Source of the DNA: Candidatus Moraniibacteriota bacterium
GTDB lineage: Bacteria; Patescibacteriota; Minisyncoccia; Moranbacterales; UBA1568
DNA: 64,000 nucleotides
Direction of reading: 5' to 3'
Assembly: GCA_016699975.1 (NCBI GenBank)
Contig: CP064994.1
Coordinates: forward strand, 848,311-912,310
In this document: one piece after another, positions 2,844 to 50,223 of the stretch
How the letters are laid out: each line of letters begins with the position of its first letter
How positions within the stretch are numbered: position 1 is the first letter of the stretch
Translations under genes and position numbers: made by a program
Notes under the pieces: model-generated
What the model was told of the DNA's origin: nothing
Databases searched by the model: none
What the model saw: only the letters and a program-made list of their open reading frames with translations

Positions 2844-3043
2844 AGAGTATCAAAAATATTGATATGAGTTTTTGTCTCCTGACGAACTGAAATTTTATTT
2901 TTTATTTTCCAAACCAAACTATTGCAAAGTATACCACACAATGATTTTCTCTTAAAAAATTATGTGGGCCGCACGACTTCAAAAAAAATTTTCAATTGTC
3001 GCCTTCCTCTTCTGGTATAAAAGAATCATATGCCCTCCATCTT

Positions 3044-4147
3044 TTATCGCTTTCGATATTGTTCGAGGCCGCCGAGTGCAAGACCGATCGCAATTGTGAA
3101 GGTGGGGCCGAGTCGTTCTAACGACGATTGAAGCGCTCCATCATACTGAAGAGACCGCCATGGATTAGAAACGGATACGGGTACGTGAAATCGATTTGAG
3201 AGGTTGGAAACGAGTCCTTCCATTTGAGAACTTCCTCCGGAAAGGAGAATTTCTTGAACCGGATTTTTCGGATCTCTTGTTGTGTGCATTTCAAAGATTC
3301 GATTCATCTCGGTCACAATGAGATCGAGCGAAGAAAACGAGAGCGATGACTCCGCATGATTGAGAAAATCTTTCGTGCCGCGCTTCAGTTCCTCTGCTCG
3401 TTCCCATGAAACATTGTAGCTCTCCGCGAGCGTTGCCGTCACTTCATGTCCGCCGGCATTGAGACTGCGGTTCAGTCGGATATCGCCGTTTTGCACGAGC
3501 ACCAAATTGGTTGCCCGCGAACCAATGTCCGCAATGAGAAGTGTGCCCGGCTTTTCCTTCGCCACCGCACGAACGAGAGAAAATATTTCGAGTTCCAAGA
3601 GATCGACGGGCAAATTCGTTTTCGCGACGTATCGTTCATACTTCGCCACTTCTTTGCGAAGCGCCGCGACAAGCAGCACTTCCATGGTTTTTCGATCGTC
3701 TCCTCCGGACTCGACCGCGTTTCCCGAAACCACTTCCCAGCTGAACGCGACTTCCTCGAGAGGCGACGGAATATATTTATGCGCTTCAAACTGAATTGCT
3801 TTTTCCAATTCTTCACTCTTCATGAGCGGTATTTCGATGAGCGTAATAAGCCCGCTAAATCCGGGAAGCGCAATACTTACTCCTTTTGAAACAGGATGAA
3901 GCGCCGAAAAAAGCGCGGAGAGATGGTCTTGGACAGTTTTTTCGGGCGACGGAACTCGGAACATTTTTCCCGGATTTTCCGAAACACTCATATCAATGGA
4001 ACCGTAATTCAAGAGCACGGGAAGATCATTCTTGATCGTGAGCTCGACCGCCTTGATGGCGGAAGTTCCGAAATCAATACCGAGGAAATAGGGTTTTTCC
4101 GATACCGAACATACAAAAGAAAAACAACAAACAAAAAGAAAATGCAT
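3044..4147 (-). CDS. pilM: Type IV pilus assembly protein PilM (actin-like ATPase fold)
   Basis: YFLGIDFGTSAIKAVEL... N-terminal phosphate-1 motif and ...IADIGSRATNLVL..., LLSGGSS motifs typical of PilM/FtsA-like proteins. First gene of the pilMNO(B) operon. Confidence 0.75.
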   Translation of the reverse strand: MHFLFVCCFSFVCSVSEKPYFLGIDFGTSAIKAVELTIKNDLPVLLNYGSIDMSVSENPGKMFRVPSPEKTVQDHLSALFSALHPVSKGVSIALPGFSGLITLIEIPLMKSEELEKAIQFEAHKYIPSPLEEVAFSWEVVSGNAVESGGDDRKTMEVLLVAALRKEVAKYERYVAKTNLPVDLLELEIFSLVRAVAKEKPGTLLIADIGSRATNLVLVQNGDIRLNRSLNAGGHEVTATLAESYNVSWERAEELKRGTKDFLNHAESSLSFSSLDLIVTEMNRIFEMHTTRDPKNPVQEILLSGGSSQMEGLVSNLSNRFHVPVSVSNPWRSLQYDGALQSSLERLGPTFTIAIGLALGGLEQYRKR

Positions 4148-4336: not shown

Positions 4337-6886
4337 ATGAAAAAACTTTCACAGACTCATGATTTTCTTGGGAAATTAAGCGGGCATGCCCGTCATATTT
4401 TGCGAGTTGCCTTCTCGGTCGCGCGCGAAAATAAAAGAGACGTTATTCGCCCCGAACACCTGTTCGTGGCTATTCTTCTCGAAAAGAAAAGTTTAGGGAG
4501 CATTCTCCTCAAACGCTTCGGGATTACCGAAAAGGATATCGAAACGATTCTTCGGCCTCCCTCTTCCTCTGTGCGAAAAGGTCGCACGCTCCTCGAGCGC
4601 ACTCCCGCCGTTTCCAGAGAAACGAGAGATATCGTGGCCAATGCCTTTCTCCTTGCGAACCGATTTTCCTACCCGTATGTCGGAAGTGAGCACTTGGTTC
4701 ACGCGCTTCTCGATTCGGGAACGCGAGCAGTCACAAATCTTCTCAATCGAAAGCGCGTGCCGCCGGAGGCCGGGGAACAAGCGGGTGAGGAACCACTAGT
4801 TCCGGAAAACGAATCGAAAGAAGCATCAAAAGAAGCATCGATTTCTCTTCCCGAACTTCCGGGTTTTTCAAAACTTTTTCCTTTTCCGTCCCTCGGCTTC
4901 CCTTTCGAAGAACAAAATGGCAATCGCGAAGAAAGCGATACTCCGGCGCTCGATCAATTTGGCGTGACGCTCGGAAAAGACCGGCCTCGGTCTCGCGAGC
5001 ATTCAAGGACGCGGGAACGCGAGGCTATTTTACGAACACTTGCAAGAAAAACCAAACAGAATCCGCTCCTGATCGGTCCTCCCGGTGTCGGGAAAACAAC
5101 CATTGTCGAATCAGTCGCCGAACTCCTCGCCGCAGGAGCGGGCGGACACACCCTCGAAGGAAAACGGATCGTCTCTCTTGATCTTGGCGCACTCGTCGCT
5201 GGTACAAGCTTCCGTGGAGAATTCGAATCCCGCCTGAAAGATGTCCTCCGAGAAGCCAAAGAACATCCCGATATTATTCTTTTCTTGGATGAAATCCACA
5301 CATTGATCGGCGCCGGAAACGCAAACGGCGGCCTCGACGCCGCCAACATGCTCAAGCCTGCGCTCTCTCGAGGCGAAGTCCGCTGCATCGGTGCCACCAC
5401 ACTTTCCGAATACCGACGCCATATCGAAAAAGATCCCGCCCTCGAACGACGCTTCCATGTCATTCGCATCGAAGAGCCGAGTGTCGAGGAATCAATTCGC
5501 ATTCTCGAAGAAAGCGTCCCTGAATACGAAACACATCATCGCCTTTCCATATCCAAAGAAGCCGTTCATGCAGCCGTCTCTCTTGGAGTTCGCCATTTGC
5601 CGTCGCGATTTCTCCCCGACAAGGCATTCGACATTCTCGACGAGGCCGCTGCCCTTTTGCGCCGCGAACACGACGCTACTCAACCCGAAGATCATCGCCG
5701 GGAACTGATCAGCGCTCACGAAACGCTCCTTGCGAAAAAGCACGAGCTTATCCGTAACAAAAAGTTCGAAGAAGCAAAAGCGCTCCATATCGAAGAATCC
5801 GCTCTCGAAGAACAGCTCAACCACATGGAACGCCTTCGCAAGGAGCGCGAGAAAAAACATCGCCTCGTTCTTTCGCGTGAAACGGTAGAAAAGGCAGCCG
5901 CCCTTCTTTCCGGAACGCCGCTCGAACAGATCACTCGCGAAACACTCGCCGCTCGAAAAACCCTCCTCCCCCAACTCTCGGAAAAAATCATCGGCCAAGA
6001 ATCCGTTCTCTCTGCGCTCTCCGAGGCAATTCTTCGCGCGAAGCTCGGCCTTGGTCGCGATCCAAAACGAACACGCCCGCTCGGCTCCTTCCTTTTTCTT
6101 GGCCCTTCCGGCGTCGGAAAAACTCTCACCGCACGAACCCTCTCCGAAGTTCTCTTCGAAGGAAAAACCTCCTTCCTGCGTTTCGATATGAGTGAGTTCC
6201 GAGAACATCATCACCTCACGCAGTTGGTGGGCTCGCCGGCAGGATACGTGGGTTTCGGCGAAGGCGGCGTCCTCACCGAACACCTCCGTCACCATCCGTC
6301 ATCCGTCATTCTCTTCGACGAAATAGAAAAAGCGCATCCCGATGTGCTGAATATTCTCCTCCAAATCCTTGAAGAGGGCATCCTGACCGATGCCGAAGGA
6401 AAGCGCGCGCACTTCGGCGAAAGTATCATTATCTTGACGTCGAATATCGGCTCCGCTTTGTTTGAAAAAGACACGAAACTCGGATTCTCCGAAACCGATG
6501 CGGCAGCACACTCTTTTGACCAAACTGCTCACGAAGTGCAAAGCGCCTTGAAGCGAGAGATGCGTCCCGAACTCCTTGCTCGACTCGACCACGTTCTCGT
6601 GTTTCGACCGCTCTCGGAAGAAGCGCTCGAGAAAATCGCACTCCTCGAAGGAAAGGCACTTGAAGAAGCCCTTCGGAAAAACGGGATGCGTCTTTCGATT
6701 CCCAAGTCCGTTTTCCGATTTCTCGCAAAAAAAAGCGCGCAAGAGAAAGAAGGAGCGCGTTCGATCCGCAAAAATATGCAGAACCTCATCGAAAATCCGA
6801 TATCATCCCTTCTTCTTGCCGAGTCGAATCTTCCTGCCGAAATATTCGTCACACTCGAGAAAAATTGCATTCATGTACGCGTGTGA
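4337..6886 (+). CDS. clpC: ATP-dependent Clp protease ATP-binding subunit ClpC (Clp_N repeats, two AAA+ modules, UVR-like middle motif)
   Basis: Two Walker A motifs (GPPGVGKT, GPSGVGKT), Clp_N repeats at the N-terminus, a UvrB/C-like segment (LLAKKHELIRNKKFEEAKALHIEES) between the NBDs, and sensor/arginine-finger motifs. ORF track 4172..6886; the likely start is ATG at 4337. Confidence 0.85.
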   Translation: MKKLSQTHDFLGKLSGHARHILRVAFSVARENKRDVIRPEHLFVAILLEKKSLGSILLKRFGITEKDIETILRPPSSSVRKGRTLLERTPAVSRETRDIVANAFLLANRFSYPYVGSEHLVHALLDSGTRAVTNLLNRKRVPPEAGEQAGEEPLVPENESKEASKEASISLPELPGFSKLFPFPSLGFPFEEQNGNREESDTPALDQFGVTLGKDRPRSREHSRTREREAILRTLARKTKQNPLLIGPPGVGKTTIVESVAELLAAGAGGHTLEGKRIVSLDLGALVAGTSFRGEFESRLKDVLREAKEHPDIILFLDEIHTLIGAGNANGGLDAANMLKPALSRGEVRCIGATTLSEYRRHIEKDPALERRFHVIRIEEPSVEESIRILEESVPEYETHHRLSISKEAVHAAVSLGVRHLPSRFLPDKAFDILDEAAALLRREHDATQPEDHRRELISAHETLLAKKHELIRNKKFEEAKALHIEESALEEQLNHMERLRKEREKKHRLVLSRETVEKAAALLSGTPLEQITRETLAARKTLLPQLSEKIIGQESVLSALSEAILRAKLGLGRDPKRTRPLGSFLFLGPSGVGKTLTARTLSEVLFEGKTSFLRFDMSEFREHHHLTQLVGSPAGYVGFGEGGVLTEHLRHHPSSVILFDEIEKAHPDVLNILLQILEEGILTDAEGKRAHFGESIIILTSNIGSALFEKDTKLGFSETDAAAHSFDQTAHEVQSALKREMRPELLARLDHVLVFRPLSEEALEKIALLEGKALEEALRKNGMRLSIPKSVFRFLAKKSAQEKEGARSIRKNMQNLIENPISSLLLAESNLPAEIFVTLEKNCIHVRV

Positions 6887-8185: not shown

Positions 8186-9202
8186 TTATTTCTTTCTCTC
8201 AAATCCTCCAATATTTGCTATCTCTGCACGAATTGCCGGATGAGGATCATAGCCATCAAGAGAAAAATCTTCAAAGACAAAATCATCGATATTTTTTCTA
8301 GAAAGAGAAAGGGAAAGTTGAGGAAATGGTTTCGGTTCTCGGGAAAGCTGTTCTCGAACCTGCTCAAAGTGATTGCTATAAATGTGGGCATCACCAAGAG
8401 TATGAAAAAAATCACCCGGCTTAAGTCCCGTAATATGCGCCACCATCCGCAGAAGTAAGGCGTAACTTGCTATATTAAAAGGAAGACCCAAAAAGACATC
8501 CGCACTCCTTTGATAAAGTCCGAGATTTAAAATGCCATCCCCTGTAACCGCAAACTGAAAGGTAGTGTGACAAAATGGCGGGACGTCGTTGTCATTCCCT
8601 TTCGAGGCCATTTCATAAATAAAGTCGGGATTCCAAGCAGAAACGACATAGGATTTTCGATAGGGCATTTTCCGCAGCCCCTCAATAACCCATCCGAGTT
8701 GATCAATTGCTCTCCCGTCACTCGCAGGCCATCGCCTCCACATCTTTCCGTACGCCACAATAAGATCTCCCCATTCCACAACAAAAGGGTCATTTTCCGG
8801 AAGTGACGCGATTTTTTCTATAAACTCTTTCTGCTCCATATCAGGAAGTCCGCGTTCTCCGCACATTCTGCGGTACCGCTTCCAAGCCCACTCATCCCAA
8901 ATATGCACATTTCTGTCCACGAGATACTTAATATTTGTATAGCCGCGCAAAAACCAAAGCAGTTCTTCAAGAATACCGCGAAAAAAAACTTTCTTGGTAG
9001 TAAGAAGAGGAAAATATTGTCCAACATTAAATCGCATTGAATACCCAAATATTGAACGGATAGTTGGAGGATCCTCCCCCTTCTTTTTGTACCATTCTAA
9101 TATTTCAGGAGCAAAAAAGAGCTTCTTATCCGTTCCCTCTTTGAGAATCTTTTTCAAAAGATCGATATATTGGTATTCCGGATGCTGTATCTTTTGTTCC
9201 AT
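8186..9202 (-). CDS. thyA: Thymidylate synthase ThyA (long form with internal insertion)
   Basis: Catalytic motifs are present: PPFCHTTFQFAV (PCH...QFYV), AYGKMWRRW (GPVYG.QWR), and DAHIY. The protein is 338 aa versus ~264 for short-form ThyA. Confidence 0.85.
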   Translation of the reverse strand: MEQKIQHPEYQYIDLLKKILKEGTDKKLFFAPEILEWYKKKGEDPPTIRSIFGYSMRFNVGQYFPLLTTKKVFFRGILEELLWFLRGYTNIKYLVDRNVHIWDEWAWKRYRRMCGERGLPDMEQKEFIEKIASLPENDPFVVEWGDLIVAYGKMWRRWPASDGRAIDQLGWVIEGLRKMPYRKSYVVSAWNPDFIYEMASKGNDNDVPPFCHTTFQFAVTGDGILNLGLYQRSADVFLGLPFNIASYALLLRMVAHITGLKPGDFFHTLGDAHIYSNHFEQVREQLSREPKPFPQLSLSLSRKNIDDFVFEDFSLDGYDPHPAIRAEIANIGGFERKK

Positions 9203-29516: not shown

Positions 29517-29760
29517 AATAACAAAAAATTTTTTACACCGAGAGTAAAATAAGATTTCTCAATAAATCAACGATACAATTTATTTCTTCATCAAATCTTT
29601 TATTGCATCTTCAACTCCACCAATTGTCAAGTCATGCATTGAAATAATTTTACTCACTGCTTGAATTGTACCAGAGTCATCTCGACCTTTCCATTCTTTC
29701 TGAAAAACTGGACTTATCCAAATGATTCGTTCATCAGCAGGTAAACAATTTGATTCATAG

Positions 29761-29967
29761 CTATTTCAAGAGTTCGTTAACTGGAACGTCCAACGCATTG
29801 GCAAGGTTAGTAATAGTCGAAAGAGTTGGATTTGTTTTCCCGTTCTCGATGTTGCTAACAAAAGACCTGTTGACTGCTAATTTCTTAGCAATCTCAATTT
29901 GGGTAACACCTTTCTTTGTTCTGATCTTCTTGAGATTTTCCCCAAGCTTTTTCGAGTAGTCTTCCAT
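29761..29967 (-). CDS. XRE-family helix-turn-helix transcriptional regulator (68 aa)
   Basis: LKKIRTKKGVTQIEIAKKLAVNRSFVSNIENGKTNPTLSTITNLANAL is a canonical HTH_XRE. Confidence 0.7.
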   Translation of the reverse strand: MEDYSKKLGENLKKIRTKKGVTQIEIAKKLAVNRSFVSNIENGKTNPTLSTITNLANALDVPVNELLK

Positions 29968-30242
29968 AAAAAGAGTATATCACATTTGTTGTATTTTACT
30001 ACAACAAGACAATGCTTAACAAATGTAACCAAAGCATACAGAATGACTAAAAACCGGCTCACTGTTATGCAATAAATTACTAGTTTTACATAGACTTAGC
30101 AAAAACAGCTATCTGCGTCATCAATTAATATATGGAACCCTATACCACAGCCAGAATCAGCGATGAAGATGATTCTCTGTAGTCAGGCAAAACTGGAAAA
30201 TGACAACAAGTATTAATGTAAAACGAGGGCTACGAACGAGAG

Positions 30243-31080
30243 TTGAAATGGGATTGTGGCCAGGTCCGCCCCCAACTGAATAGATATATGAAAGAGAAGC
30301 GAATGGATCGAAAATGCGAAACTCTTATTGATCCAGAACGAGCACCAATGATAAAAAAGATGTGTGAAACAGTAGCCTATGAACATTGGAGCGGGAGAAA
30401 AATCTACAACTGGCTCAAATTTGATCTGAACTTCAAAAGTGGCACCAGAAAGAGAAACTTAAGCCTCGGCAATATCTACAGGCTCCTCGATAATACCTTC
30501 TACTATGGAGTATTCTAATATCCAAGAAAATCAGGAAACTGGTACACAGGGAAACACAAACCGAGCATTACCAAAGAGCTTTTTGATCTCGTACAAAGTC
30601 AGATAAAAAGCCAAATTCTACGGGTTGAAGGGAAAGAGTTCGCTTTCACGAAAATAATGACTTGCAGACTCTGCGGATCAGGTATAAGTGCCGACGAAAA
30701 GTTCAAAAAGAAAAGAAGTGGCGGAGTTCACCGATAGGTCTCCTACGGCTGTACCAAAGCTAGAGGGACCGATTGTAAGTGTGGCTATACCGAAAAAAAA
30801 GAAATCCTAAAACATTTTGAAGAACTGATAGACAAGATAAGTCTCAATGAGATCGAGGTAAAGGAAAAATAAAAGCAGATATTGATCAGTTTTCCAAAAT
30901 GCAAAAGTTCTTTCTCGGAACAAAAGAAAAAATCAGTATTCCCAGTGTTGATATTCGAGGATATGCCAAATATATCCTCGAAGAAGGTGCGAACGAAGAG
31001 AAGTGAGAAATACTGGGTTGTCTCAAAAGCAGGATCTATCTTGCAGAGAAGAAAATAACTTTGGATAAATAAATAGACAA
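30243..31080 (+). pseudogene. Large serine recombinase remnant (recombinase domain, zinc ribbon and coiled-coil region) with several frame breaks and stops. It has no catalytic N-terminal domain.
   Basis: ...KIYNWLKFDLNFKSGTRKRNLSLGNIYRLLDNTFYYGVF is followed, in shifted frames, by ...CRLCGSGISADEKFKKKRSGGV..YGC.KA..TDCKCGY. The second serine recombinase gene at 39285 has similar motifs. Confidence 0.55.
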
Positions 31081-31089
31081 TCATAAAAG

Positions 31090-31118
31090 TAAAAAGCACG
31101 GATTTTCCGTGCTTTTTA
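31090..31118. terminator. Bidirectional hairpin (AAAAAGCACGGA-TTT-TCCGTGCTTTTT) with T/A runs on both sides
   Basis: 7-bp stem flanked by an A5 run and a T5 run. Confidence 0.4.
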
Positions 31119-31169
31119 CTTTGTAACCGACCAATGTTGCAGGTAAGCGTGTCGTGCTACCTGCTGTTG

Positions 31170-31360
31170 GCGGTGAGATTTTGCGCTTTGCGCGAACTTT
31201 TTTCGAGCAAAGCACCAAATAAGGAAGCCGTCCCCGCCGTTGCGCTCCGCCCACTGGCGGATCGCTGTATCCAGAGAGAAGTTTCTTTACGATTTCGGAT
31301 TTTGCGCGCGGTTTTTTTCTCTCAAAAATGGAAAAGAAATCTTCTCTCTGGATACTCTGC
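31170..31360. repeat. Inverted repeat IR-A (left copy, ~190 bp). Its inverted partner lies at 38945..39133.
   Basis: The reverse complement of 31170..31360 matches 38945..39133 with only a few indels. The unit contains internal hairpins (GTATCCAGAGAGAAG...CTTCTCTCTGGATAC; CCGCCAGTGGGCGG). Confidence 0.85.
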
Positions 31361-31669
31361 TTTGGCAAGCAGAACGGCGGGAACGGCTGCTGTTGGTACG
31401 CCGCAGAGATAGAAATAAATGAGCTTGTGGTTATATTCTATCACATCAGGAAATATTTTGTTCACTCATTTCTCCATCTTTGCGGCGGAGCCATATCTAC
31501 AGTTTTCGGTAGTTCATTTGTTTGTGACTCCGGTTAAGCTGGTGCCAACCCATAATATGGATTGTGCTAGAGCACAATCAAATTTAATTGTGCTTGCCCC
31601 ACCCACCCGTGCGCGCACATCTGCTCGCAAAGGATAAAAGGGTTGCGAGCAAGACTCCCTTTTCATTCC

Positions 31670-33059
31670 CTATACTGAAGCCTTACTATGCTTGCTAATC
31701 TTTATTTGGGGAGTAATACCTAATTCCGAGCATTTTCTTGCCCAGGATTCAATTTTTTGTTTCAAGATTATAGAATTTATTTCAGAGATTTTAGTTGGCA
31801 ATTTTTTGTTTTCTATGCCAATCCAAAGACAGTAAACCCGGAAAGACTGATCCAGCTTTTTAGTATTCGCTTTCTTACTTATAAGTTCAAGTGTATTATT
31901 TGCCTGGTCACAAACATATCCTAGCTTTTGTGCAGTGCCAAATTTTACAGCATACACGGTATCCTCCTTCTTTACATCCCATGCCTCAATAGGCGTGCCC
32001 GATTTAACCTTAATTTTTGAAAAATCTTTATCCGCGATACTGTACCCGTGTTTCTTCAACTCTATATTAAAATCACTTTCTATTCCCATAATTTCAATCA
32101 AATCATCCTCTACTTTCTCTAGTTCTATGGTATCAATATACTCATTGAGTTGATCCAAATAATCTTCGTTAAATCTCATCCATTTACCTTGTGACAAAAT
32201 AACATTTTGACCATCAACGATATAATCAATTGATTCCTTGAGCGTCCGCGAGAACTCATTTGCATCTTCTTTTTTTACTTTAATCTTAATACTAAGTATT
32301 TGATCATCAGGAATCGAATGTTCTGATATAAATCCATTAAGCTGCTCAATCGAAAGCTCATCTAGCTCATTTGAAAAATTTCCTCCCCAATGAAATACAT
32401 ACTTTTCTTGTCCAGAAAATATGAAATCTACACCGACAAGGTCGTGGCTATTTGCGGTAAAGTCTGCACCGTCTTTGATTCCTTTTATTTCTTTGAGAAG
32501 CTTTTCTTCATAAGAAATGACTTCGGGAAGTCCATCTATAATCATCGTTCTGGGGAGCGCGAAAAGTTCTTTTGATTCAGCTAATCTAGTCAATTTATCA
32601 AGAAAATCCTCAAGGTCCTCTTTCTCAATTTCTGGATTAAGATTTACGGATGATCCGAATTTACCAGTTTTGCCGAAGTCAGCTTTTTGCTCTTCCAATA
32701 TAGATGCTTGCAAATAGTCAACGGATTCCCCACTTTCTATATCAAGCTTTGTATGTTTTGTATAGCTTCTTATTTCTTTTTTCTTCTTGCCAGCAAACTT
32801 TTTTGTAGATTTTTGACGAACATCCTGTTTATCAACAGCACGTTTTGCAATTTCTGTTCCAAAATCATGATCGCAGTGTTGCCGAAGATAAAAATGACTC
32901 TTCCCGTAACTAATAACGAAGCAATATTTGTCATTTTCCCAAAGATAAGCTGCAAAATAAATTAAATTCTTTGGCTTATTACCAGAAAAAAATTCCTCAT
33001 ATTCTTCCACCCACGGGATTTGTTTTGAGTTAATATCTTTTGAAAAATAGAAGCTATAT
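31670..33059 (-). CDS. Unknown protein, C-terminal ~462 codons of a ~505-aa gene interrupted by an IS630 element. It is the last gene of the R-M operon.
   Basis: ORF 31670..33073. Its first 5 codons are encoded by the IS terminal inverted repeat. The upstream exon is at 34140..34265. The protein is K/E-rich with no recognised domain. Confidence 0.45.
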
Positions 33060-34138
33060 CCCCCGCAAAACAAAATAGGGGATCTGGTATATTGGATTCA
33101 TGCCCGCAAAAACAAAAACTGAACTCTCCCCCGAAGAGAAAGATTTGCTCAAAGCGTATCTCAAAACATCCCCGCTCATTCTCGTTCGCCTGAAATGCCA
33201 TGCGATTCTTACGAGAGAAAAAGGAATGCCTCTGAAAGACATCGCCGATATTGTTTCGAGACACGAAAATACTATCGGTGTATGGATGAAGAACTGGGAA
33301 AAACAACGCATGGCGAGTATCTTCACCGGACATGAGGGAATCAGAACGCAAGTAAACTCACAGAAGAACAAAAGAAGAAATCAGAGAAGCCCTCGAAAAC
33401 CACCAAGTGAATACACTCTTCCAAAAACCTTTTGGGATGTCCCCGCCCTCAAAACATATGTTCAAGCGATATTTGGAGTCGTATTTGAATCCGTTCGTTC
33501 ATATCACTTCCTCCTTTCTTTTTGCAATCTGAGTTTCAAGTATCCCGATACCTTCGATCTTCACCGGAATGAAACTCATATTGTCGAAAGAATGGTTGAA
33601 ATACAGACAGAAATCAGCCCCTTCTCAAGGATGATTCGTGGGAAGTGTTTGCTTCCGATGAAGTGCGAATGGAATTGGAAGCTCTCACCAGAAAAGCGTG
33701 GCTCAAGAAAGGAGAACGGACGATCGTGCACGTGAATCGAAAGCGAGAAGCGCAAGTTATCTCGATTGCTCAATCAAAAAACTTTCGATGCCATCTTTAT
33801 GAAGTTCCCTGGCAAAACCAAGAAGAAATACTCAAAGCGTTGGAACAATTTCTGAAAGAGTATCCTGATAAAAATCTGTATCGTATGGGACAATGCGCGA
33901 TTTCCAGGGAAGGGGAATACGAAAAGCCCTCCGTAAAGGAGGACTTCTCGAGAGAGTGCATCTCATCAACTTGCCGCCATGCCCCCGATCATAATCCGAT
34001 TGAGCAGTGTGGAATACGGCGAAAGGGATGATGGCAAACACCCAATATGAAAGTTTTGAAAAAATGAAGATGGTGTTTTTCACGTATGTGAATGGACGAG
34101 CGTTTGAGTATCGAATCTAAGATTTTGTTTTGCGGGGG
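33060..34138 (+). mobile_element. IS630/Tc1-mariner family insertion sequence (~1.08 kb) with 17-bp terminal inverted repeats CCCCCGCAAAACAAAAT and TA-type flanks
   Basis: The left TIR is at 33060..33076. Its reverse complement is at 34122..34138. Flanks are ...TATAT| and |ATATAG. Confidence 0.75.
33100..34031 (+). pseudogene. IS630-family transposase (HTH plus DDE domain), frame break near 33650
   Basis: N-terminal HTH (LKCHAILTREKGMPLKDIADIV) and a C-terminal ...APDHNPIEQ motif (the YSPDLNPIE box) occupy two overlapping frames (ORFs 33100..33735 and 33645..34031). Confidence 0.65.
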
Positions 34139-34139
34139 A

Positions 34140-34265
34140 TATAGTTTTCCATTTTCCGTGCACAGAAGAGTGAATAACTTCGAGTCCCACAGACTCAAGC
34201 TTCAATTTCAAATCTAAAACACTGTCTTTTGGAATTTTGAAGATATTCAACTTCATAATGGTCAC
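34140..34265 (-). CDS. 5' exon (42 codons) of the IS630-disrupted unknown gene. Its start overlaps the methyltransferase stop (ATGA).
   Basis: MTIMKLNIFKIPKDSVLDLKLKLESVGLEVIHSSVHGKWKTI, after which the ORF runs into the IS TIR. Confidence 0.4.
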
Positions 34266-35041
34266 TTCATTCTATTTTCTGCAACCTTAAAGTATTTTTT
34301 ATCCTTCTCTATGCCAACCCAAGTTCTGCCAAGTTTTTTTGCAACAAATGTTGTTGTGCCACTCCCGAGAAACGGGTCAAGAACAACGTCGCCTTTATTA
34401 GACGAAGCAAGAATGATTCTTCTCAACATTTCCTCTGGTTTCTGCGTTGGATGAACTGCTCGATTATCCTTTCCGCGTATTCTTTCTTTTCCTTGTACCA
34501 ATGGCAACTGCCAAACATCCCGCATTTGCTTCAAGGAGCCATCTTTTTGTTTTTCAGGATTCAGTTTTTTTAATTCCTCATAGTTGAACACCCATCCCTT
34601 GCCTTTTACCGCCCATACAACAAATTCTGTAGAGTGTGTAAATACGCGCCTCGTCATATTTGGCATCGCATTTGTTTTTTGCCAAGTAATAATATTATTG
34701 ATCTTGAAATCAAGTTGTTTCAAGACAATCATTACCTCTGAAATATTGTGATATGTGCAGGAAATATAGATTGAGCCACCTTCTCTCAAAACACGATACG
34801 CTCCACCAATCCATTTGCGTGTAAACTGCAAGTATTCAGGAGCGGACATCCTGTCCCACTCTTCGTTTACCATGTACCAATCGCCACCTGTTTTATTTCC
34901 CTTCCAATGCAAGCCATTGCCAGAAAGGTTATAGGGAGGATCAGCAAAGATAAGATCAACAGATTCTTTCTCAATCTGCTTAGTCATTATCTCTACACAA
35001 GCTCCTAGGTATAGTTGGTTTTTCTTCATATTTTTATACAA
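34262..35041 (-). CDS. Beta-class DNA methyltransferase (N6-adenine or N4-cytosine; motif IV DPPY before motif I)
   Basis: IFADPPYN near the N-terminus and LDPFLGSGTT near the C-terminus give the permuted beta-class order. The length is 259 aa, typical of the HinfI/RsrI-like group. Confidence 0.8.
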   Translation of the reverse strand: MYKNMKKNQLYLGACVEIMTKQIEKESVDLIFADPPYNLSGNGLHWKGNKTGGDWYMVNEEWDRMSAPEYLQFTRKWIGGAYRVLREGGSIYISCTYHNISEVMIVLKQLDFKINNIITWQKTNAMPNMTRRVFTHSTEFVVWAVKGKGWVFNYEELKKLNPEKQKDGSLKQMRDVWQLPLVQGKERIRGKDNRAVHPTQKPEEMLRRIILASSNKGDVVLDPFLGSGTTTFVAKKLGRTWVGIEKDKKYFKVAENRMK

Positions 35042-36848
35042 GGCTTGCCTGCCATGTTGATATGGCGTTTGGAATATTCTTTAACCACTCTCCCGAGTCC
35101 GTATACGATTTTGATGAACCAATAATTTCTTCGTACAAACGAGAGATTTCATCGTGCTTCAAAAATTTATTCTCAGATTTTATCTTGACGAGAGTTTTCA
35201 AGACTGAAACAAAATCAGTAATTGATAATGGTACTATTTTTTGAGTTTTCCCCTCATATTCATATTTGATAGCTGTCCAAAAAGTATTGACCGTATCACG
35301 ATGAATTTTTGGAGCTATAAAGAGACAATATGTTTTCTTATCAGTGTATTTATTCTCAAAATCCCGCAAATGTCTCATAACTGGCTGCCCCTCATTGTAC
35401 CATTGATCCCTACCTGTAAGCATTGTAACTTCGCAGATAGCATTAAAGTTTCCATAGAAACATTCGATGTCTGGTGTGTTGGCAGGAGCAGTAAAAGTGG
35501 GCTCATTATCGTCTCCGACAGGATAGTTTGGTTGTATTTTGAGTGCGTCATTTAGTGCGTGGAGACCAAGAGAGGACAATTTTTCAAGCAGTATCGGTCG
35601 ATCCTCAAAGTCAAAAATATTTTCGAGGTCTTTGATGTAAGATTCAACTTGTTCTACCGCTTGTGATTTTTTGTGGTTACCCTCTTCTTGTAATGTCCGC
35701 CTCAAAACCCGCAACTCCTCAATGTATGCCTTGAGTTCCGTTTCTTGAAAAGTCTGATAATCCCTTATAGCAATACCTCTCCTCTGTAAGTCACTCTCGT
35801 ATTGCTCAATATCTTGAACGAGGTTTTTGATGATTTCCACATATTTTTCCTTAGTTTCCCAAGGTAGTTGTGGTTGCGAGATATCAGAAATATAGTTTAG
35901 ATACTCATCTTTTGTTGCAAAAACCCTTGATTGCGCATTATCAAAATCAAGCAAAGATTTTATCTCAACTGATCTTCTCGATTCCAAATCAATATAATAA
36001 CCACCACCACGAATAAATATGTAGCGTGTTAGACGAGAATATCGTATTGCATTATCTCCGTAATCGCGTAGATTTTTCAGAAGTCCTGAAACTGCACTTG
36101 TCTTTTTTGTCCCGAGAAATTTACTTACAAATTCTTTTTCATAGGAATCAAAAATTGCTTTCTGTTCATTTCTATTTTTTCCAGAAAGCTTATCGCGCAA
36201 TCCTATGAGGTTTGTCGCATAACCATCAATATCCTTGTAATTTACCAATGTTGGTACGAAAAGCGAAAATTCTTTCTTACTAATTCCTTTCGCCTCTTTG
36301 CCTCGCGCAATTTCTTTTCTGTTTACAGCATCTATCAAGTGAAGCGCACCAATAAATGGTTTAATATCATATCCACTATCCTGCGAATAATCGTCATTAT
36401 CCAAGTTCGGAACTTGCCATTTCAAGAAACTTCTCAAGAAAATTTCTCCAAGATCGAAATTTTCCTTCAAAAACAATCTTCCTAAATCTGTGATAAAAAT
36501 TTTCCCATCTTTAATGGAAACAAATCCGAATTTTTTTAGAGGATTCAATGATTGTCTGCCTCGCATCGAAGGATCCTCATAGTTCTTGGCATTGAAAATT
36601 GCCTCAGCTTCTTTGAAAGAAATTTCTTTTGATTGATCGTCAATCAGGCTTATCTGATCTTCTGAAAGACCATTATAAAACTGGCGGCTTCCATACCCGT
36701 AAACTCTATTTTTAATAAGCAAAATCTGATATTTTTTCTGATTTTCTAAATTCCACTCAAAATTTTCAATCTCCTGCAAAACGACTAGGAAATTTCTTAG
36801 TCTTTCAGGATTACGTAATGTTGTTGTAATTGACCAGGGCTTTTTCAT
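35034..36848 (-). CDS. Type IIS restriction endonuclease or nicking enzyme of the AlwI family (N.BstNBI/PleI/MlyI-like)
   Basis: 604 aa. The C-terminal block ...ICEVTMLTGRDQWYNEGQPVMRHL...YCLFIAPKIHRDT...IVPLSITDF parallels ...LGEVTTSKG...EPVTRH...YCLFIAPEIN...IIPLSLKQF, recalled from N.BstNBI. The N-terminal region is also similar. Confidence 0.7.
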   Translation of the reverse strand: MKKPWSITTTLRNPERLRNFLVVLQEIENFEWNLENQKKYQILLIKNRVYGYGSRQFYNGLSEDQISLIDDQSKEISFKEAEAIFNAKNYEDPSMRGRQSLNPLKKFGFVSIKDGKIFITDLGRLFLKENFDLGEIFLRSFLKWQVPNLDNDDYSQDSGYDIKPFIGALHLIDAVNRKEIARGKEAKGISKKEFSLFVPTLVNYKDIDGYATNLIGLRDKLSGKNRNEQKAIFDSYEKEFVSKFLGTKKTSAVSGLLKNLRDYGDNAIRYSRLTRYIFIRGGGYYIDLESRRSVEIKSLLDFDNAQSRVFATKDEYLNYISDISQPQLPWETKEKYVEIIKNLVQDIEQYESDLQRRGIAIRDYQTFQETELKAYIEELRVLRRTLQEEGNHKKSQAVEQVESYIKDLENIFDFEDRPILLEKLSSLGLHALNDALKIQPNYPVGDDNEPTFTAPANTPDIECFYGNFNAICEVTMLTGRDQWYNEGQPVMRHLRDFENKYTDKKTYCLFIAPKIHRDTVNTFWTAIKYEYEGKTQKIVPLSITDFVSVLKTLVKIKSENKFLKHDEISRLYEEIIGSSKSYTDSGEWLKNIPNAISTWQASLV

Positions 36849-36850
36849 AA

Positions 36851-38659
36851 TTATTTTGTAACTTTACAATAAAAGATTCTCTCGGCATTATCATCGCCAT
36901 TACTTTTTCCAGTTGTAAATGCTTTATACTCTTTTTCGAAAATTTCCACTTCTCCTTTGCTGTTCAAAATTCTCAGTATGTCCTTATCTTTCATTCTCGC
37001 ATTTGATCGCCCATCTTTTGAGTCGCCAGTATTATTATACGAAAGCAAAATATGATTGCATTTTGCATTCATAATCAAGTCTTCAAATGCCTGCGTCGCG
37101 TTCTTTAAACAATAAGAACTTTTAATGTGCGATCGATCCATTTTCTTTCCAATTCCAACGACTGCTGGCTTTTTCCATTCCACCAAGTTTTCTAAAAGAT
37201 GGTATGCGTCAGAATACTGTCTTGAATTGTAAGGGGGATCAATATATAAAACATCACAAGTAATTTTTCGAATAAGAGCGTTTGCATCTTCCCTATAAAC
37301 TTTGTTGTTTTTATTCCGGGAATAATCAAAATCTGGCACTAGCAGCTTCAATGGCTGTACAGTATCTAATTTTTTTCGGAACGCATCATAATGCCCAACG
37401 GTATTAGCAACCTTGTCTACTGCGTAAAGCAATGAACAAATAAGCAGACTTCTTTCGTCTTCATTTTCTGCAATACGGTCAATTTCTTCTCGTATTGCTC
37501 CAATTTTCCTTGCATTTTCTAACGAAAAATATGTTCCTCCAAAATGCTTAGAGAAATAATTATCGTCTTTGCTTTGTAGATTGTTTAAATGGCTTATTTT
37601 ATTTGCTACACTGGCAAGAATATCCTTACTAACACCAAGAAAAGCATTTAAACAAACATAGTTTGCATAAAGAAAATCATTCGAAATGATTTTGACTTCT
37701 GGGGTATTAAACCTTTCACCAACAACGCCCGTTCCAGAAAAAATATCACAAAGAGAATCTATTTTCCCGCATTTCTCAGAAATAATGTCCTCTATAAACC
37801 CGAGAAGTTTATGCTTGTTTCCTAAGTACCTTCTATTTTGCAATTGAAAATACCCGGCTTTTTGTTGTATTGGCTGAAAATAATGTTTCTCGACTTTTCG
37901 AACGCTCATTTCATAAACAGGTCTTTCAATCTCTAATAAGTCAAAAAGTGTCGCCTGTGTTCCATCAGCAACATAATCAAAATCAGTACCAGTCTTTTTT
38001 AACTTTTCACAAAAACTATAATGTTCATTTTCGGAAACAATAATAAAATCAATAACGGGTATCCCCATTATTTCGCCAGCTTGTGCTATTTTCTCAACAA
38101 CTTGAGTATCTTTTTCACTCGGAGTAGTATCTCCTGATGGATGATTATGTACCAATATGACGCTAGCGGCATTTAACTCCGTTGCTGGATGAAAAATTTC
38201 TCGTGGATGTAAGAGTGTTTTATCAAGAAGCCCAACACTCACTACTTCTTTCTTAAGCAAGCCATTCCTTGCATTGAGATATAGGCAGACGAGATGTTCT
38301 TTTTTCTTATCTCGTAGATCATAAATCAAAGACAGTACATCCTGTGAGTTTTTTATGATAAGCTCATTGGATTTTTCTTCTTGATAAAACCTCTTCACGA
38401 GAGAAACAGCAGAAACAACCTGAAGAGCCTTTGCCTGCCCAATTCCTGATATTTTTTGCAAATCATCCACGGATATATCTAAAAATCCTTTTCCAAATTT
38501 TTGGATCACTTGTTGGGATAATTTTTGAACATTTTTCCCTTTGATTCCGCTCCCAAGTAGAATAGCCAAAAGATCACTTTTGGAAAGTGCATCCGGTCCT
38601 TTCTTAAGGAACCTCTCTCTTGGTCTATCCACTTTTGGAATATCTTTTATTTTTGTCAT
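36851..38659 (-). CDS. Fusion protein with an N-terminal RadC-like JAB/MPN domain and a C-terminal Dam-like (D12-class, alpha) N6-adenine DNA methyltransferase
   Basis: Residues 1-225 carry a RadC HhH region (LSKSDLLAILLGSGIKGK...ISGIGQAKALQ) and the JAMM motif HNHPSGDTTPSEKD. Residues ~250-602 carry YLGNKHKLLGFIE...DIFSGTGVVG (D12 motif I) and LYIDPPYN (motif IV). Confidence 0.75.
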   Translation of the reverse strand: MTKIKDIPKVDRPRERFLKKGPDALSKSDLLAILLGSGIKGKNVQKLSQQVIQKFGKGFLDISVDDLQKISGIGQAKALQVVSAVSLVKRFYQEEKSNELIIKNSQDVLSLIYDLRDKKKEHLVCLYLNARNGLLKKEVVSVGLLDKTLLHPREIFHPATELNAASVILVHNHPSGDTTPSEKDTQVVEKIAQAGEIMGIPVIDFIIVSENEHYSFCEKLKKTGTDFDYVADGTQATLFDLLEIERPVYEMSVRKVEKHYFQPIQQKAGYFQLQNRRYLGNKHKLLGFIEDIISEKCGKIDSLCDIFSGTGVVGERFNTPEVKIISNDFLYANYVCLNAFLGVSKDILASVANKISHLNNLQSKDDNYFSKHFGGTYFSLENARKIGAIREEIDRIAENEDERSLLICSLLYAVDKVANTVGHYDAFRKKLDTVQPLKLLVPDFDYSRNKNNKVYREDANALIRKITCDVLYIDPPYNSRQYSDAYHLLENLVEWKKPAVVGIGKKMDRSHIKSSYCLKNATQAFEDLIMNAKCNHILLSYNNTGDSKDGRSNARMKDKDILRILNSKGEVEIFEKEYKAFTTGKSNGDDNAERIFYCKVTK

Positions 38660-38661
38660 AT

Positions 38662-38910
38662 CTATTTCAAAAGCTCATCACTCGCGACATCTAACGCCTG
38701 TGCGATCTTTTCGATTGTTGCAAGGGTGGGGTTTCCTTTCCCTGCTTCAATATTGCTCACTTGAGCACGATCAAAACCGAGCTTACGACAAATGTCGCCT
38801 TGCGACATTTTCTTCTGCTCTCGTATGCGTTTGATGTTTTTCCCAAGCTTGATTGAAGGGGTAGTCATATCTATAGATTTTATTATACCGATTGTTGTGT
38901 TGTATAACAA
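38662..38910 (-). CDS. Controller (C-protein-like) XRE-family HTH regulator at the head of the R-M operon
   Basis: LGKNIKRIREQKKMSQGDICRKLGFDRAQVSNIEAGKGNPTLATIEKIAQAL. The stop is 3 nt before the RadC-methyltransferase start. About 70-80 aa. Confidence 0.6.
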   Translation of the reverse strand: MLYNTTIGIIKSIDMTTPSIKLGKNIKRIREQKKMSQGDICRKLGFDRAQVSNIEAGKGNPTLATIEKIAQALDVASDELLK

Positions 38911-38944
38911 TAATGTGATATATTACAATACACAAAGGAAAAAA

Positions 38945-39133
38945 GCAGAGTATCCAGAGAGAAGTTTTCTTTTCCATTTTTGAGAAAAAAACCGCGCGCA
39001 AAATCCGAAATCGTAAAGAAACTTCTCTCTGGATACAGCGATCCGCCAGTGGGCGGAGCGCAACGGCGGGGACGGCTTCCTTATTTGGTGCTTTGCTCGA
39101 AAAAAGTTCGCGCAAAGCGCAAAATCTCACCGC
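38945..39133. repeat. Inverted repeat IR-A' (right copy)
   Basis: Reverse complement of 31170..31360. Confidence 0.85.
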
Positions 39134-39255
39134 AAATTGAAACTTCCGAATCCGAAAGGGAAAAGGATCGGTGCGCCGAAGGCGCGGAAGAAGACAGAAG
39201 GTGGCGTCGCTCCGCGACGAATCTGAATGGGGTGGACAGGCTGAAGCGGGCGGAT
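39130..39255. repeat. Inverted repeat IR-B (left copy, ~126 bp). Its partner is at 40678..40805, and it directly abuts IR-A'.
   Basis: The reverse complement of 40678..40805 equals 39130..39255 nearly perfectly. It begins with a near-copy (1 mismatch in 9) of the tRNA-Ser 3' end (CTCACCGC versus CTCTCCGC). Confidence 0.85.
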
Positions 39256-39284
39256 TTGTCCTTGTTTCGTATCCAAAAGCAATT

Positions 39285-40690
39285 ATGATCAAACCAAAAT
39301 ATTTTCTCTACGCGCGCAAGAGTACTGAAGACGATGATCGCCAGGTAATGAGTATTGAGGCGCAGCTTTTTGAATTGCGAGAATATGCGCGTAAAGAAAA
39401 TCTTGAAATCCTGAAGGAATTTCAAGAGTCGAAAAGCGCAAAGACGCCAGGGCGAGAGGTATTCGGAAAGTTGATGGAACGAATTGAAAACGTGATGGAG
39501 TCGGTATTCTCGCGTGGCATCCTGATCGCTTGGCGCGTAATTCGATGGATGGCGGGCGCGTGGTGTACGCCGTCGATCAAAAGAAAATCGTGTCTTTGCG
39601 CTTTCCGACTTTTTGGTTTGAACCGACCCCGCAGGGGCTCTTTATGTTGCAAGTGGCGTTCGGACAATCCAAATACTATTCCGACAACCTCGCCGAGAAT
39701 ATCAAGCGAGGAATCCGCCAAAAATTGCGCCGTGGCGAGTGGCTCAACCTCGCTCCCTTTGGTTATATGAACGATCCTGTGAAGCGAAATATTGCGCCAC
39801 ATCCCACGGAAGCGCGGATTGTGCAGCTCGCGTTTGATGAGTACGCAAAAGGAACGCACACTTTCTTGTCTCTTGGCGCATTTTTGGCGGAACTTGGCGT
39901 GGTCAGTCGGAATGGAACGCCACTTGCCAAAGCTTCCATCAAACGGCTCATCACCAACCGTGCCTATCTCGGTTTTGTGAAGCACGGTAAGGAATGGTTT
40001 GATGGAAACTTTGAGCCCCTGATTTCTCCCGCTTTGTTTGAAGCCGTGCAGAAGATACTTTTGGCGAGAGAGCGACCGCGCAAGCGGAAAATGAAGCATG
40101 ATTTTCCGTTTACTGGACTTTTTCGATGTGGCGAGTGTGGTAGTATGATTTCCGCCCAATGGACGACGAATCGGCATGGCACGAAGTATCGCTACTATCG
40201 GTGCTCGAAAAAGCGCGGTCGCTGTTCGCAGTCGTACATTCAGGAGAAAACCCTCGCCAAACAATTACGAGCACGGCTTCAAACCATTTCGCTGTGTGAT
40301 CACTACACTGACTGGATGTTGGGTAAGGTGAAGGAATGGGAGCATGAAGAAGTATCGGCATCACACAGCGAAATACAAAATCTTTCAGCAACTATCAAAG
40401 CGAGTGAGGCGCGCCTGGAGAAGTTGGTTTCGATGTATTTAGATGGTGATGTTACCAAAGAAATCTACCTTCGCAAAAAAGATGAAAGTATGCGCGCCAC
40501 TCTCGCTTTGCGGGAAAAGCTGAAAGATTTGGAAAGCGGGAGAAATCAGTGGGTCGAACCCCTGCGAGAATGGATTTTGGATACGAAACAAGCCGATTTT
40601 TTGGTCGAGCATGAGGATTTGCACCAAACAAAAAGGCTCGTCCAAAAAATCGGAACGAACCCCATTGTTCGTGACAAATCCGCCCGCTTC
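39285..40690 (+). CDS. Large serine recombinase (resolvase catalytic domain, recombinase domain, zinc ribbon, coiled coil) with one frame break near 39500
   Basis: The N-terminal catalytic region is YARKSTEDDDRQVMSIEAQL... The second frame continues with ...GILAWHPDRLARN... The CGECGSMISAQW...YYRCSKKRGRC zinc ribbon follows. The end coordinate is approximate because the ORF runs into IR-B' and the tRNA. Confidence 0.75.
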
Positions 40691-40805
40691 AGCCTGTCCA
40701 CCCCATTCAGATTCGTCGCGGAGCGACGCCACCTTCTGTCTTCTTCCGCGCCTTCGGCGCACCGATCCTTTTCCCTTTCGGATTCGGAAGTTTCAATTTG
40801 CGGAG
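40678..40805. repeat. Inverted repeat IR-B' (right copy). Its last 5 nt overlap the tRNA-Ser 3' end.
   Basis: See IR-B. Confidence 0.85.
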
Positions 40806-40887
40806 AGGCAGGGATTCGAACCCTGGAAGGGGTTTCCCCCTTAACACATTAGCAGTGTGCTGCTTTCAGCCACTCAGCCACCTCTCC
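40801..40887 (-). tRNA. tRNA-Ser (anticodon GCU), class II with long variable arm. No encoded CCA.
   Basis: The minus-strand sequence folds as acceptor GGAGAGG, D-arm GCT..AGC, anticodon stem GCACA/TGTGT with loop CTGCTAA, a long variable arm, and T-arm CAGGG-TTCGAAT-CCCTG. The sequence is GGAGAGGTGGCTGAGTGGCTGAAAGCAGCACACTGCTAATGTGTTAAGGGGGAAACCCCTTCCAGGGTTCGAATCCCTGCCTCTCCG. Confidence 0.8.
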
Positions 40888-49340: not shown

Positions 49341-50062
<722 letters not shown>

Positions 50063-50069
50063 TCGGTTC

Positions 50070-50142
50070 GCGCTCGTAGCTCAGTGGATAGAGCGTCTGG
50101 TTGCGGTCCAGAAGGTCGCAGGTTCGATTCCTGCCGAGCGCA
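50070..50142 (+). tRNA. tRNA-Arg (anticodon GCG read from loop TTGCGGT). No encoded CCA.
   Basis: GCGCTCGTAGCTCAGTGGATAGAGCGTCTGGTTGCGGTCCAGAAGGTCGCAGGTTCGATTCCTGCCGAGCGCA folds as a perfect cloverleaf with 7-bp acceptor, D-stem GCTC/GAGC, anticodon stem TCTGG/CCAGA and T-arm GCAGG/CCTGC. Confidence 0.7.
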
Positions 50143-50223
50143 CATCCCAAACTTCTTCTCTTCCAGAATATCGAAACACCGATCACACGGTGTTTTTCGG
50201 TTTCCGAAACACAAACTGAACTA

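Follow-up and report, generated by a model that had tools for sequence, protein, structure and literature searches.

Nested inverted repeats beside a tRNA-Ser gene in a Candidatus Moranbacteria genome probably represent an integrated serine-recombinase cassette with a second, inverted attP

We analyzed a stretch of 64,000 nt (hereafter, the window) from the genome of a Candidatus Moraniibacteriota bacterium (contig CP064994.1, positions 848,311 to 912,310), in which two pairs of long inverted repeats (IR) lie next to a tRNA-Ser(GCU) gene. One pair, IR-A, encloses a cassette with restriction-modification (R-M) genes; the other, IR-B, encloses a gene for a large serine recombinase (LSR). We consider it likely that window positions 31170-40803 are one integrated copy, ~9.6 kb in length, of a family of small, non-viral, LSR-driven integrative cassettes of Patescibacteria that carry a second, inverted attP attachment site. 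The feature is one copy, possibly inactivated, of a widespread serine-integrase element type in bacteria of the Candidate Phyla Radiation (CPR).

A repeat finder and blastn agreed on the repeat boundaries. The arms of IR-A (31167-31363 on the plus strand and 38942-39136, designated A', on the minus strand) match over 197 nt with 98% identity and a single 2-nt indel. The arms of IR-B (39126-39260 on the minus strand and 40673-40807, designated B', on the plus strand) match at 134 of 135 nt (99%). An extra 24-nt inverted match, 39261-39284 versus 40569-40592, extends the left arm of IR-B to 39284; in the right-hand copy an 80-nt gap precedes it. Repeats of this length and identity cannot have originated by chance. 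The central arms A' and B overlap by 11 nt (39126-39136, tctcaccgcaa), and a near-copy of the tRNA end sits inside this overlap. The tRNA-Ser(GCU) gene itself (40800-40887, minus strand) is intact (ARAGORN; Rfam, 59.9 bits), and IR-B' runs into its last 8 nt. A previous sequence-only reading of this DNA had given nearly these positions for both repeat pairs, had placed the end of IR-B' inside the 3' end of tRNA-Ser(GCU) and had described the central site as a composite A'B, with one half at each outer end; repeat mapping agreed with it on all of these points. Blastn with the two units found no further copy of either within the 64-kb window.

To define the attachment sites, we aligned three junctions in 21 loci: site 1, where flanking DNA (X) meets the A arm (X-core-A); site 2, between A' and B, which in reverse complement reads B'-core-A; and site 3, B'-core-tRNA. 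A core of 4-7 nt was common to all three junctions in 18 of the 21 loci. It was GCGG for tRNA-Ser, including the window, TGTGC for Leu and Gly and TGTGA for Glu. In the window, GCGG is present in direct orientation at both element ends, 31170-31173 (site 1) and 40800-40803 (site 3), both on the plus strand, and the core of site 2 is at 39130-39133 on the minus strand (ccgc on the plus strand). By the bookkeeping of half-sites, B'-core-A corresponds to attP and X-core-tRNA to the former attB. Sites 1 and 3 are accordingly read as attL- and attR-type junctions and site 2 as a putative second attP, intact and inverted. The shared cores suggest that the LSR catalyzes recombination of attP with attB at a 2-bp crossover. 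That the actual crossover region would be short had been anticipated, and the three-junction comparison also upheld the proposed signature of site-specific recombination and of an element integrated at the tRNA. In contrast, the suggestion that the repeats of 126-190 bp are themselves the recombination sites was not supported: they are two copies of a ~330-nt module, in which attP is accompanied by conserved hairpins and the 3' end of the recombinase gene. Thus, the repeats are long because a whole module is duplicated, and their length is not that of a crossover site.

The A arm always opens with ..CTTTGCGCGAAC.., and in 18 of 21 loci CGAAC occurs 19 nt from the divergence point of A and the tRNA, whereas the same motif is at +13 in the T-loop of the tRNA (TTCGAAC). 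In LSR sites, the motif of DBD2 (the zinc-ribbon DNA-binding domain) is 4-5 bp closer to the center in attB than in attP (PMC11722253), and the CGAAC offset has the same direction and a similar size. In the window, the left arm of IR-A contains the P'-type half-site, with CGAAC 19 nt from the core, and B' the P-type half-site. X arms of different loci are unrelated to one another, which suggests that attB is recognized mainly through the tRNA arm. A YGAAM motif at +19 in the reverse complement of B' is not claimed, as it was seen in only 17 of 43 loci.

The same layout was found in relatives. A protein search with the frame-corrected LSR returned 4,911 homologs at E<=1e-20. The 120 best of them were 67-93% identical to the query over 86-100% of its length, a coverage that takes in the tail reading through B' into antisense tRNA (EVSICGEGGIRTLEG), and their named sources were almost all Patescibacteria. 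Species-representative genomes contained at least 583 loci of relatives. We examined 80 of these loci and two metagenome contigs (82 loci in total, numbered with the prefix L) by self-comparison. In ~70 of the 82, an IR-B of typically ~130-140 nt surrounded the LSR gene and abutted the 3' end of a tRNA gene. Its right arm overlapped the 3' end of an oppositely oriented tRNA, mostly one of four tRNA-Ser species, with Glu, Arg, Leu, Gly, Val, Ala, Lys and Pro also represented. In 20 loci whose upstream sequence was long enough, 1-9 kb of cargo was enclosed by an IR-A of ~160-290 nt (~100% identity), and in most of these its right arm overlapped the left arm of IR-B by 4-11 nt. The nested layout was present in closed or very long contigs (L017, L041 and L042), and tandem arrays of two or three elements were also found (L014, L030 and L073). 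The layout of the window, A-cargo-A'.B-recombinase-B'.tRNA, is a family trait, which recurs around close LSR homologs in independent Patescibacteria assemblies.

The cargo differs even between loci whose LSRs are 92-95% identical. It is mostly related to defense, including type I, II and IIG R-M systems, GmrSD, AbiEii-like and Septu/Gabija-like ATPases, Shedu, an OLD-family nuclease and a Thoeris-type TIR protein, and it also includes a few metabolic genes. The recurrence of the architecture across the family excludes several simpler readings of the window. The sequence-only reading had raised the possibility that a tRNA-integrated element later captured or inverted a neighboring R-M cassette. 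The G+C content of the cargo, which is below that of its surroundings, would agree with such a one-off event, but the nested layout with different cargo occurs in at least 20 independent genomes, and in many independent genomes the cargo and the A arms on either side of it belong to the element as an integral, conserved unit. We regard this local rearrangement as very unlikely. It had also been suggested that the repeats might result from chimeric or collapsed assembly or be a dispersed repeat resembling a miniature inverted-repeat transposable element (MITE). Many short-read contigs of relatives do break exactly at IR-B. However, the window, whose DnaE and RecG are identical to proteins of a Candidatus Moranbacteria metagenome-assembled genome (MAG), lies within a 1,048,819-bp contig of that MAG, a length that argues against a repeat-induced chimera, and the layout is reproduced in the closed or long contigs mentioned above and in dozens of independent assemblies. 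As to a MITE, each unit occurs only twice in the window, no A-type unit was seen outside these recombinase elements in the genome loci retrieved, and a metagenome scan yielded a single stray A unit, which was a left-end remnant. The chance that either of these two explanations is right appears negligible.

The integrated LSR element with its two attP copies probably formed as follows. The mobile form would be a circle, in which a cargo segment and a recombinase segment are separated by two inverted ~330-nt modules, B'.core.A. The LSR would have recombined one attP with the extreme 3' end of tRNA-Ser(GCU), with the crossover within GCGG. This integration would have split one attP copy into X-GCGG-A on the left and B'-GCGG-tRNA on the right and, at the same time, exchanged the native C-terminus of the LSR for antisense-tRNA codons. 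The other copy, A'-core-B, would have been left intact between cargo and recombinase, which would produce the nested-repeat picture. Near-identity of the arms would then be maintained by gene conversion or homologous recombination. Since the B arm is common to sites 2 and 3 and the A arm to sites 1 and 2, an exchange between them would invert the recombinase segment or the cargo segment, respectively, with no site changed.

The recombinase gene (39285-40852, plus strand, with ATG at 39285) reads through B' and the core into the antisense strand of the tRNA. In the window, one A is missing in the run at 39487-39490, and the resulting -1 frameshift leaves the reading frame not intact; intact homologs read ERIEK(S/R)DGVGILAWHPDRL across this point. 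It may be a homopolymer sequencing error. This frameshift was the sole correction to the gene calls of the sequence-only reading, which otherwise agreed with Pfam. The frame-corrected protein, at least 520 aa in length, has the domain set of a serine integrase: PF00239 Resolvase (5e-24), PF07508 Recombinase (2e-13) and PF13408 Zn_ribbon_recom (3e-11). Its best PDB matches were the SPbeta integrase (9e-11) and then the A118 integrase. The closest phage and plasmid LSRs were ~25% identical to it, and a scan of IMG/VR with the recombinase revealed no relatives. Several homologs have N-terminal extensions that represent a translated B-like unit. Directly upstream of the recombinase start, almost every examined locus has ..GTTTCGTATCCAAAA.. 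(reverse complement, TTTTGGATACGAAAC), which in the window corresponds to 39261-39284. The same 24 nt match, in reverse complement, the codons WILDTKQ of the recombinase gene (40569-40592). This motif may be part of a promoter or leader.

The native end of the recombinase is found by reading the uninterrupted attP. In 47 distinct sites, the B'-core-A frame encodes ...LSxxEVS[IF]CG[ED][IV]LxFARTxFE, with a stop 4-20 codons later. Third codon positions of this attP-spanning frame have an entropy of 0.81 versus 0.37 at second positions, and the codons for Leu, Ala, Thr and Phe vary synonymously. TTT and CGA show no variation, which points to a constraint at the DNA level in addition to the coding one. 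Because the frame crosses the core, integration replaces the last ~15 codons of the gene. Consistent with this, 12 of the 120 best homologous proteins carry the native tail, and most of the others end in tRNA-antisense codons. In the window, the last ~15 codons and the stop of the native C-terminus lie in the left arm of IR-A, and B' encodes the C-terminal tail that precedes the core. The left arm of IR-B with its 24-nt extension (39126-39284, minus strand) is an inverted copy of the 3' coding end of the gene and is located directly upstream of the recombinase start. The spare native 3' end is a minus-strand frame that terminates in ...EVSICGEILRFARTFFEQSTK and a stop codon. The spare attP thus appears to keep the native 3' end of the recombinase gene inside the integrated element.

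We also examined the structure and evolution of the duplicated module. B' contains two hairpins supported by covariation: 83% of alignment cells were paired versus 72% in shuffles, and 54 double-change cells were observed versus 16.7 expected, a number reached in 0 of 500 shuffles. Slid controls paired at 21-52%. In most loci, A terminates in a long hairpin of 13-36 bp, whose stem sequences vary by locus; in the window, it is at the inner end of the left arm. Hairpins in unit A had been predicted for the window, and folding supported them (-76 kcal/mol, z = -5.9). The sequence-only reading had taken these features as a hint at a recombination site or a structured RNA. Conserved, covarying hairpins do exist, and they could act as RNA or as DNA, but no Rfam family matched the units: at the gathering threshold and at E<=10, only tRNAs and noise were detected over both repeat regions. 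A terminator hairpin at the conserved start motif of A was considered and rejected, because it forms only in the subgroup of the window.

The two arms of each pair evolve together. The median identity within a locus was 99.2% for IR-B (n=69) and 99.8% for IR-A (n=27), whereas B' arms of different loci were 55.7% identical. This concerted evolution could mean that the spare attP has no function, being a very old inverted duplication that homologous recombination cannot delete and that gene conversion refreshes from the selected coding B' arm and the functional A arm. The strong orientation bias described below, with no obvious use of flipping, would fit such an origin, as would the few loci in which arms have decayed or been lost (L061, with 74-79% identity, and L016, L018 and L072). 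On the other hand, the spare attP is retained in essentially every member of a family that has diverged to ~60% protein identity, and this in streamlined genomes. Moreover, in the non-coding left arm of decaying pairs, ~20 nt next to the core and ~30 nt at the inner end are conserved while the middle drifts, a pattern that hints at use of the spare site. A functionless copy is the main rival explanation, to which we give rather little credence.

Several loci had configurations other than that of the window. In L087, attP flanks the gene on both sides as a perfect 399-nt repeat, and the contig consists wholly of element DNA; L092 is organized likewise. These two contigs would fit an excised circle with both attP copies, and the inner member of a tandem array of identical copies is also possible. 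B'-core-A junctions were also present inside the tandem arrays L014 and L073. In five loci (L048, L062, L088, L093 and L095) the recombinase segment is flipped, such that the tRNA is upstream and co-directional and the gene reads into A. The L093 protein is exactly identical to that of L092, which is from another sample. In L088 (arms 1722-1855 and 3271-3404) and L095 (arms 1186-1327 and 2947-3088), the arms are only 86-87% identical, versus the family median of 99%, and therefore the assembly of the flipped state is unambiguous. Either only diverged arms permit the assembly of this state, or the flipped state in these loci is old and locked. A flipped cargo was seen in L001, where a conserved non-coding motif of the cargo segment, designated Y, is inverted and adjoins A' (the sole exception among 19 copies). 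In addition, cargo open reading frames (ORFs) are on the recombinase strand in L044 and L059, and in L089 the cargo follows A directly, head first. All of these are minority states, so that flipping is rare or one isomer is favored. We infer that the LSR rather than RecA carries out the flipping.

The isomers raise the question of whether this is a Hin/Gin-like phase-variation switch, in which the recombinase would frequently invert the R-M cassette or its own gene and so turn it on or off. Like hin, the recombinase gene is inside one invertible segment, and both orientations of each segment occur among relatives. However, the promoter of the cargo lies inside the segment; the arms are symmetric, and a flip alters no junction within ~135-200 nt; the polarity of motif Y is 18:1 for one cargo orientation; the enzyme is an LSR of >500 aa and not a small invertase with a C-terminal helix-turn-helix (HTH); and the identical layout carries unrelated cargo. 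A phase switch is, in our view, improbable. A different role of the spare site is conceivable. Our preferred guess is that the spare attP stores the native 3' end of the gene, so that the element could integrate in the second orientation or the recombinase segment could flip; in both cases the gene would be re-joined to its native end and come to lie downstream of the tRNA promoter. The inverted spare attP might then be a built-in control device, by which a one-way serine integrase manages its life cycle without a directionality factor. The common orientation, convergent with the tRNA and with a foreign tail, would be the quiet, stable state, and a flip between the ~135-bp B arms (by RecA or the LSR), or integration through the other copy, would yield the active state; perfect B arms of ~135 bp would suit RecA. 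This idea is speculative, and we give it rather little credence.

Set against the three-junction logic, the family conservation, the frame that crosses attP, the concerted evolution, the alternative isomers and the forms with attP on both sides, all of which were observed, are several points that weigh against an LSR element integrated through one of two attP copies. The circular intermediate is postulated from the structure of contigs only. The left attB arm (X) is not conserved, which is unusual among LSR sites. The B' and A arms showed no clear dyad symmetry, and a comparison of X with the tRNA arm gave no clear signal either. The copy in the window may be inactive because its recombinase is frameshifted. 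With equivalent attP copies, both integration orientations should be common, but among the genome loci the normal one was seen in ~65-70 and the other in 2, and this skew, together with the cargo polarity of motif Y, implies that either the two attP copies are not equivalent or one isomer is selected. The pair L091 and L092, in which the recombinases are identical but the cargo is oriented oppositely, was not taken to prove cargo inversion: their perfect arms are longer than k=141, and the path taken by the assembler may be arbitrary. Finally, we found no clean empty site for the genome of the window; the strain variants reached via a left-flank protein carry another island. A scan of metagenome DNA with the A-start pattern gave a single remnant left end and no alternative isomer of the window element.

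The family resembles several known systems in part. It shares with the A118/LI, SPbeta SprA, phiC31 and Bxb1 integrases the catalytic, recombinase and zinc-ribbon domains, crossover at a short core and an attP that adjoins the integrase gene. As in phage LSR sites, the outer motif of the P-type arm is further from the center than that of the B-type arm (here +19 versus +13). Unlike phage LSR systems, the Patescibacteria family has 1-9 kb of mostly defense cargo, no phage genes and a second inverted attP, as well as structured attP modules of 330-400 nt, a frame that crosses attP and a left attB arm that is not conserved. No candidate for a recombination directionality factor was identified. 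Tycheposons of Prochlorococcus and classical tRNA-linked islands are likewise small cargo elements at tRNA 3' ends, which form tandem arrays and vary between strains. They use mainly tyrosine recombinases and have direct repeats built from the 3' part of the tRNA. As in such islands, the recombinase gene in the window is at the tRNA-proximal end, at the 3' end of an intact tRNA; to our knowledge, the nested inverted-repeat design is not part of their descriptions.

With Hin, Gin, Cin and Pin, the family shares a serine recombinase gene inside (hin) or beside a segment with inverted sites. However, those are small invertases (~190 aa, C-terminal HTH) that act on 26-bp sites with an enhancer and Fis and do not integrate, whereas the present element type combines an LSR (at least 520 aa in the window), repeats of 135-400 nt and integration at a tRNA. 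The yeast 2-micron plasmid (FLP/FRT) and the plastid inverted repeats offer an analogy only: two unique segments, long identical inverted repeats that hold the recombinase target, concerted evolution and isomers. In the 2-micron plasmid, FLP is a tyrosine recombinase and replication is autonomous, whereas the present family integrates, showed no replication genes and has strongly skewed isomers. Integration also alters the end of an ORF that spans attP in the repressor of mycobacteriophages BPs and Brujita and in the SSV1 integrase. Both use tyrosine integrases. The family differs from them in that the recombinase swaps its own C-terminal ~15 residues and keeps a spare native end inside the element. 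We did not find the nested attP architecture described in the literature searched, although its absence there is no proof that it is unpublished.

Mobile elements of Patescibacteria are poorly characterized, and this family appears to be a common vehicle for defense and accessory genes. In addition, it is a source of hundreds of natural LSR/attP/attB triplets with sites that the three junctions reveal directly, which is useful for the discovery of genome-engineering tools. The conserved second attP and the attP-spanning frame raise the question of how a serine integrase is regulated without a separate directionality factor. If the spare site were indeed a control device, the family would amount to a naturally occurring LSR switch that is self-contained and reversible and comes with defined attP/attB pairs for some ten tRNA species.

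Additional observations concern individual loci. Many MAG contigs begin or end exactly at the outer edge of IR-B beside the tRNA (L006, L007, L009, L011, L012, L021, L022, L027, L043, L046, L071 and others). Perfect inverted repeats of ~135 nt and ~200 nt are the reason why many CPR contigs break beside tRNA genes, and in short-read assemblies of Patescibacteria the family probably often accounts for such breaks. The three-element array L030 contains two identical spacers of ~175 nt (4702-4881 and 8280-8453), and at the start of each is a 15-nt sequence that mimics the 3' arm of tRNA-Ser (AGACGGTGGGATTCG). It appears from this that ~15 nt of the tRNA arm plus the core suffice as a target. In L017 (11392-11560), which is part of the closed chromosome OY970382.1, IR-A and IR-B of the element are perfect, and the adjoining sequence, GCGGTGA followed directly by TCATCGGTCGGGAACC..., is not a detectable tRNA. 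This may be a pseudo-site or a degraded target.

The cargo of the window (G+C content 37.5% versus ~47% outside) is organized around an operon on the minus strand (34262-38910), which has its own promoter-like site at 38910-38882. Pfam assigned its genes to an HTH controller or 'C' protein (38662-38910), a RadC+D12 methyltransferase (36851-38659), an AlwI-type endonuclease (35034-36848) and an N6/N4 methyltransferase (34262-35041), all on the minus strand. In the second of these, a D12-class adenine methyltransferase is fused to a complete RadC-like JAB domain and a UPF0758 N-terminal domain, an unusual fusion partner. An exact look-up of the AlwI-type endonuclease gave no exact-sequence match on record. 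A further minus-strand gene (31670-33073) belongs to the DUF6119 family, and its 5' end abuts an IS630-like insertion sequence (33042-34156, plus strand) with a broken transposase (HTH_23 and DDE_3 matches) and 35-nt terminal inverted repeats. This insertion may have truncated the DUF6119 gene, whose Pfam match begins at profile position 43. In a strain variant (L084, 209-1246), an intact related transposase is inserted at a site equivalent to window position ~28896.

Motif Y (31542-31620, plus strand) is a non-coding conserved backbone motif of ~80 nt located at the tail of the cargo segment. Among related loci, nhmmer detected 19 copies, and in 18 the position and orientation were those seen in the window. 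It contains a palindrome, GATTGTGCTAGAGCACAATC, and then a C-rich stretch, and it is located just inside the left A arm in 17 elements with unrelated cargo. We rejected a small protein encoded in A or Y: the apparent ORFs of ~70 aa change frame between loci, which places the conservation at the level of the DNA.

Flank X, the left arm of the left junction (29723-31166), is strain-variable relic DNA, as judged by comparison with strain contigs and by tblastn. Tblastn with the recombinase revealed in it a decayed fragment of a different LSR gene (30441-30845, plus strand; 31% identity to residues 205-337). Two contigs from near-identical strains (L083 and L085) are 99.9% identical to the window as far as 29722 and then diverge. 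Between this position and the same tRNA-Ser(GCU), they contain a different 4-kb island with an AAA_5 ATPase and a 587-aa protein, which terminates at the tRNA with a degenerate B'-like sequence. Elsewhere in the window, tRNA-Ser(UGA) and tRNA-Arg(GCG) genes (49341-49431 and 50070-50143) are located back to back and appear unoccupied. In a relative whose LSR is 95% identical (L003), one element of the family is found on each side of the corresponding tRNA-Ser/tRNA-Arg pair. Thus, the pair in the window may represent empty target sites in this genome.

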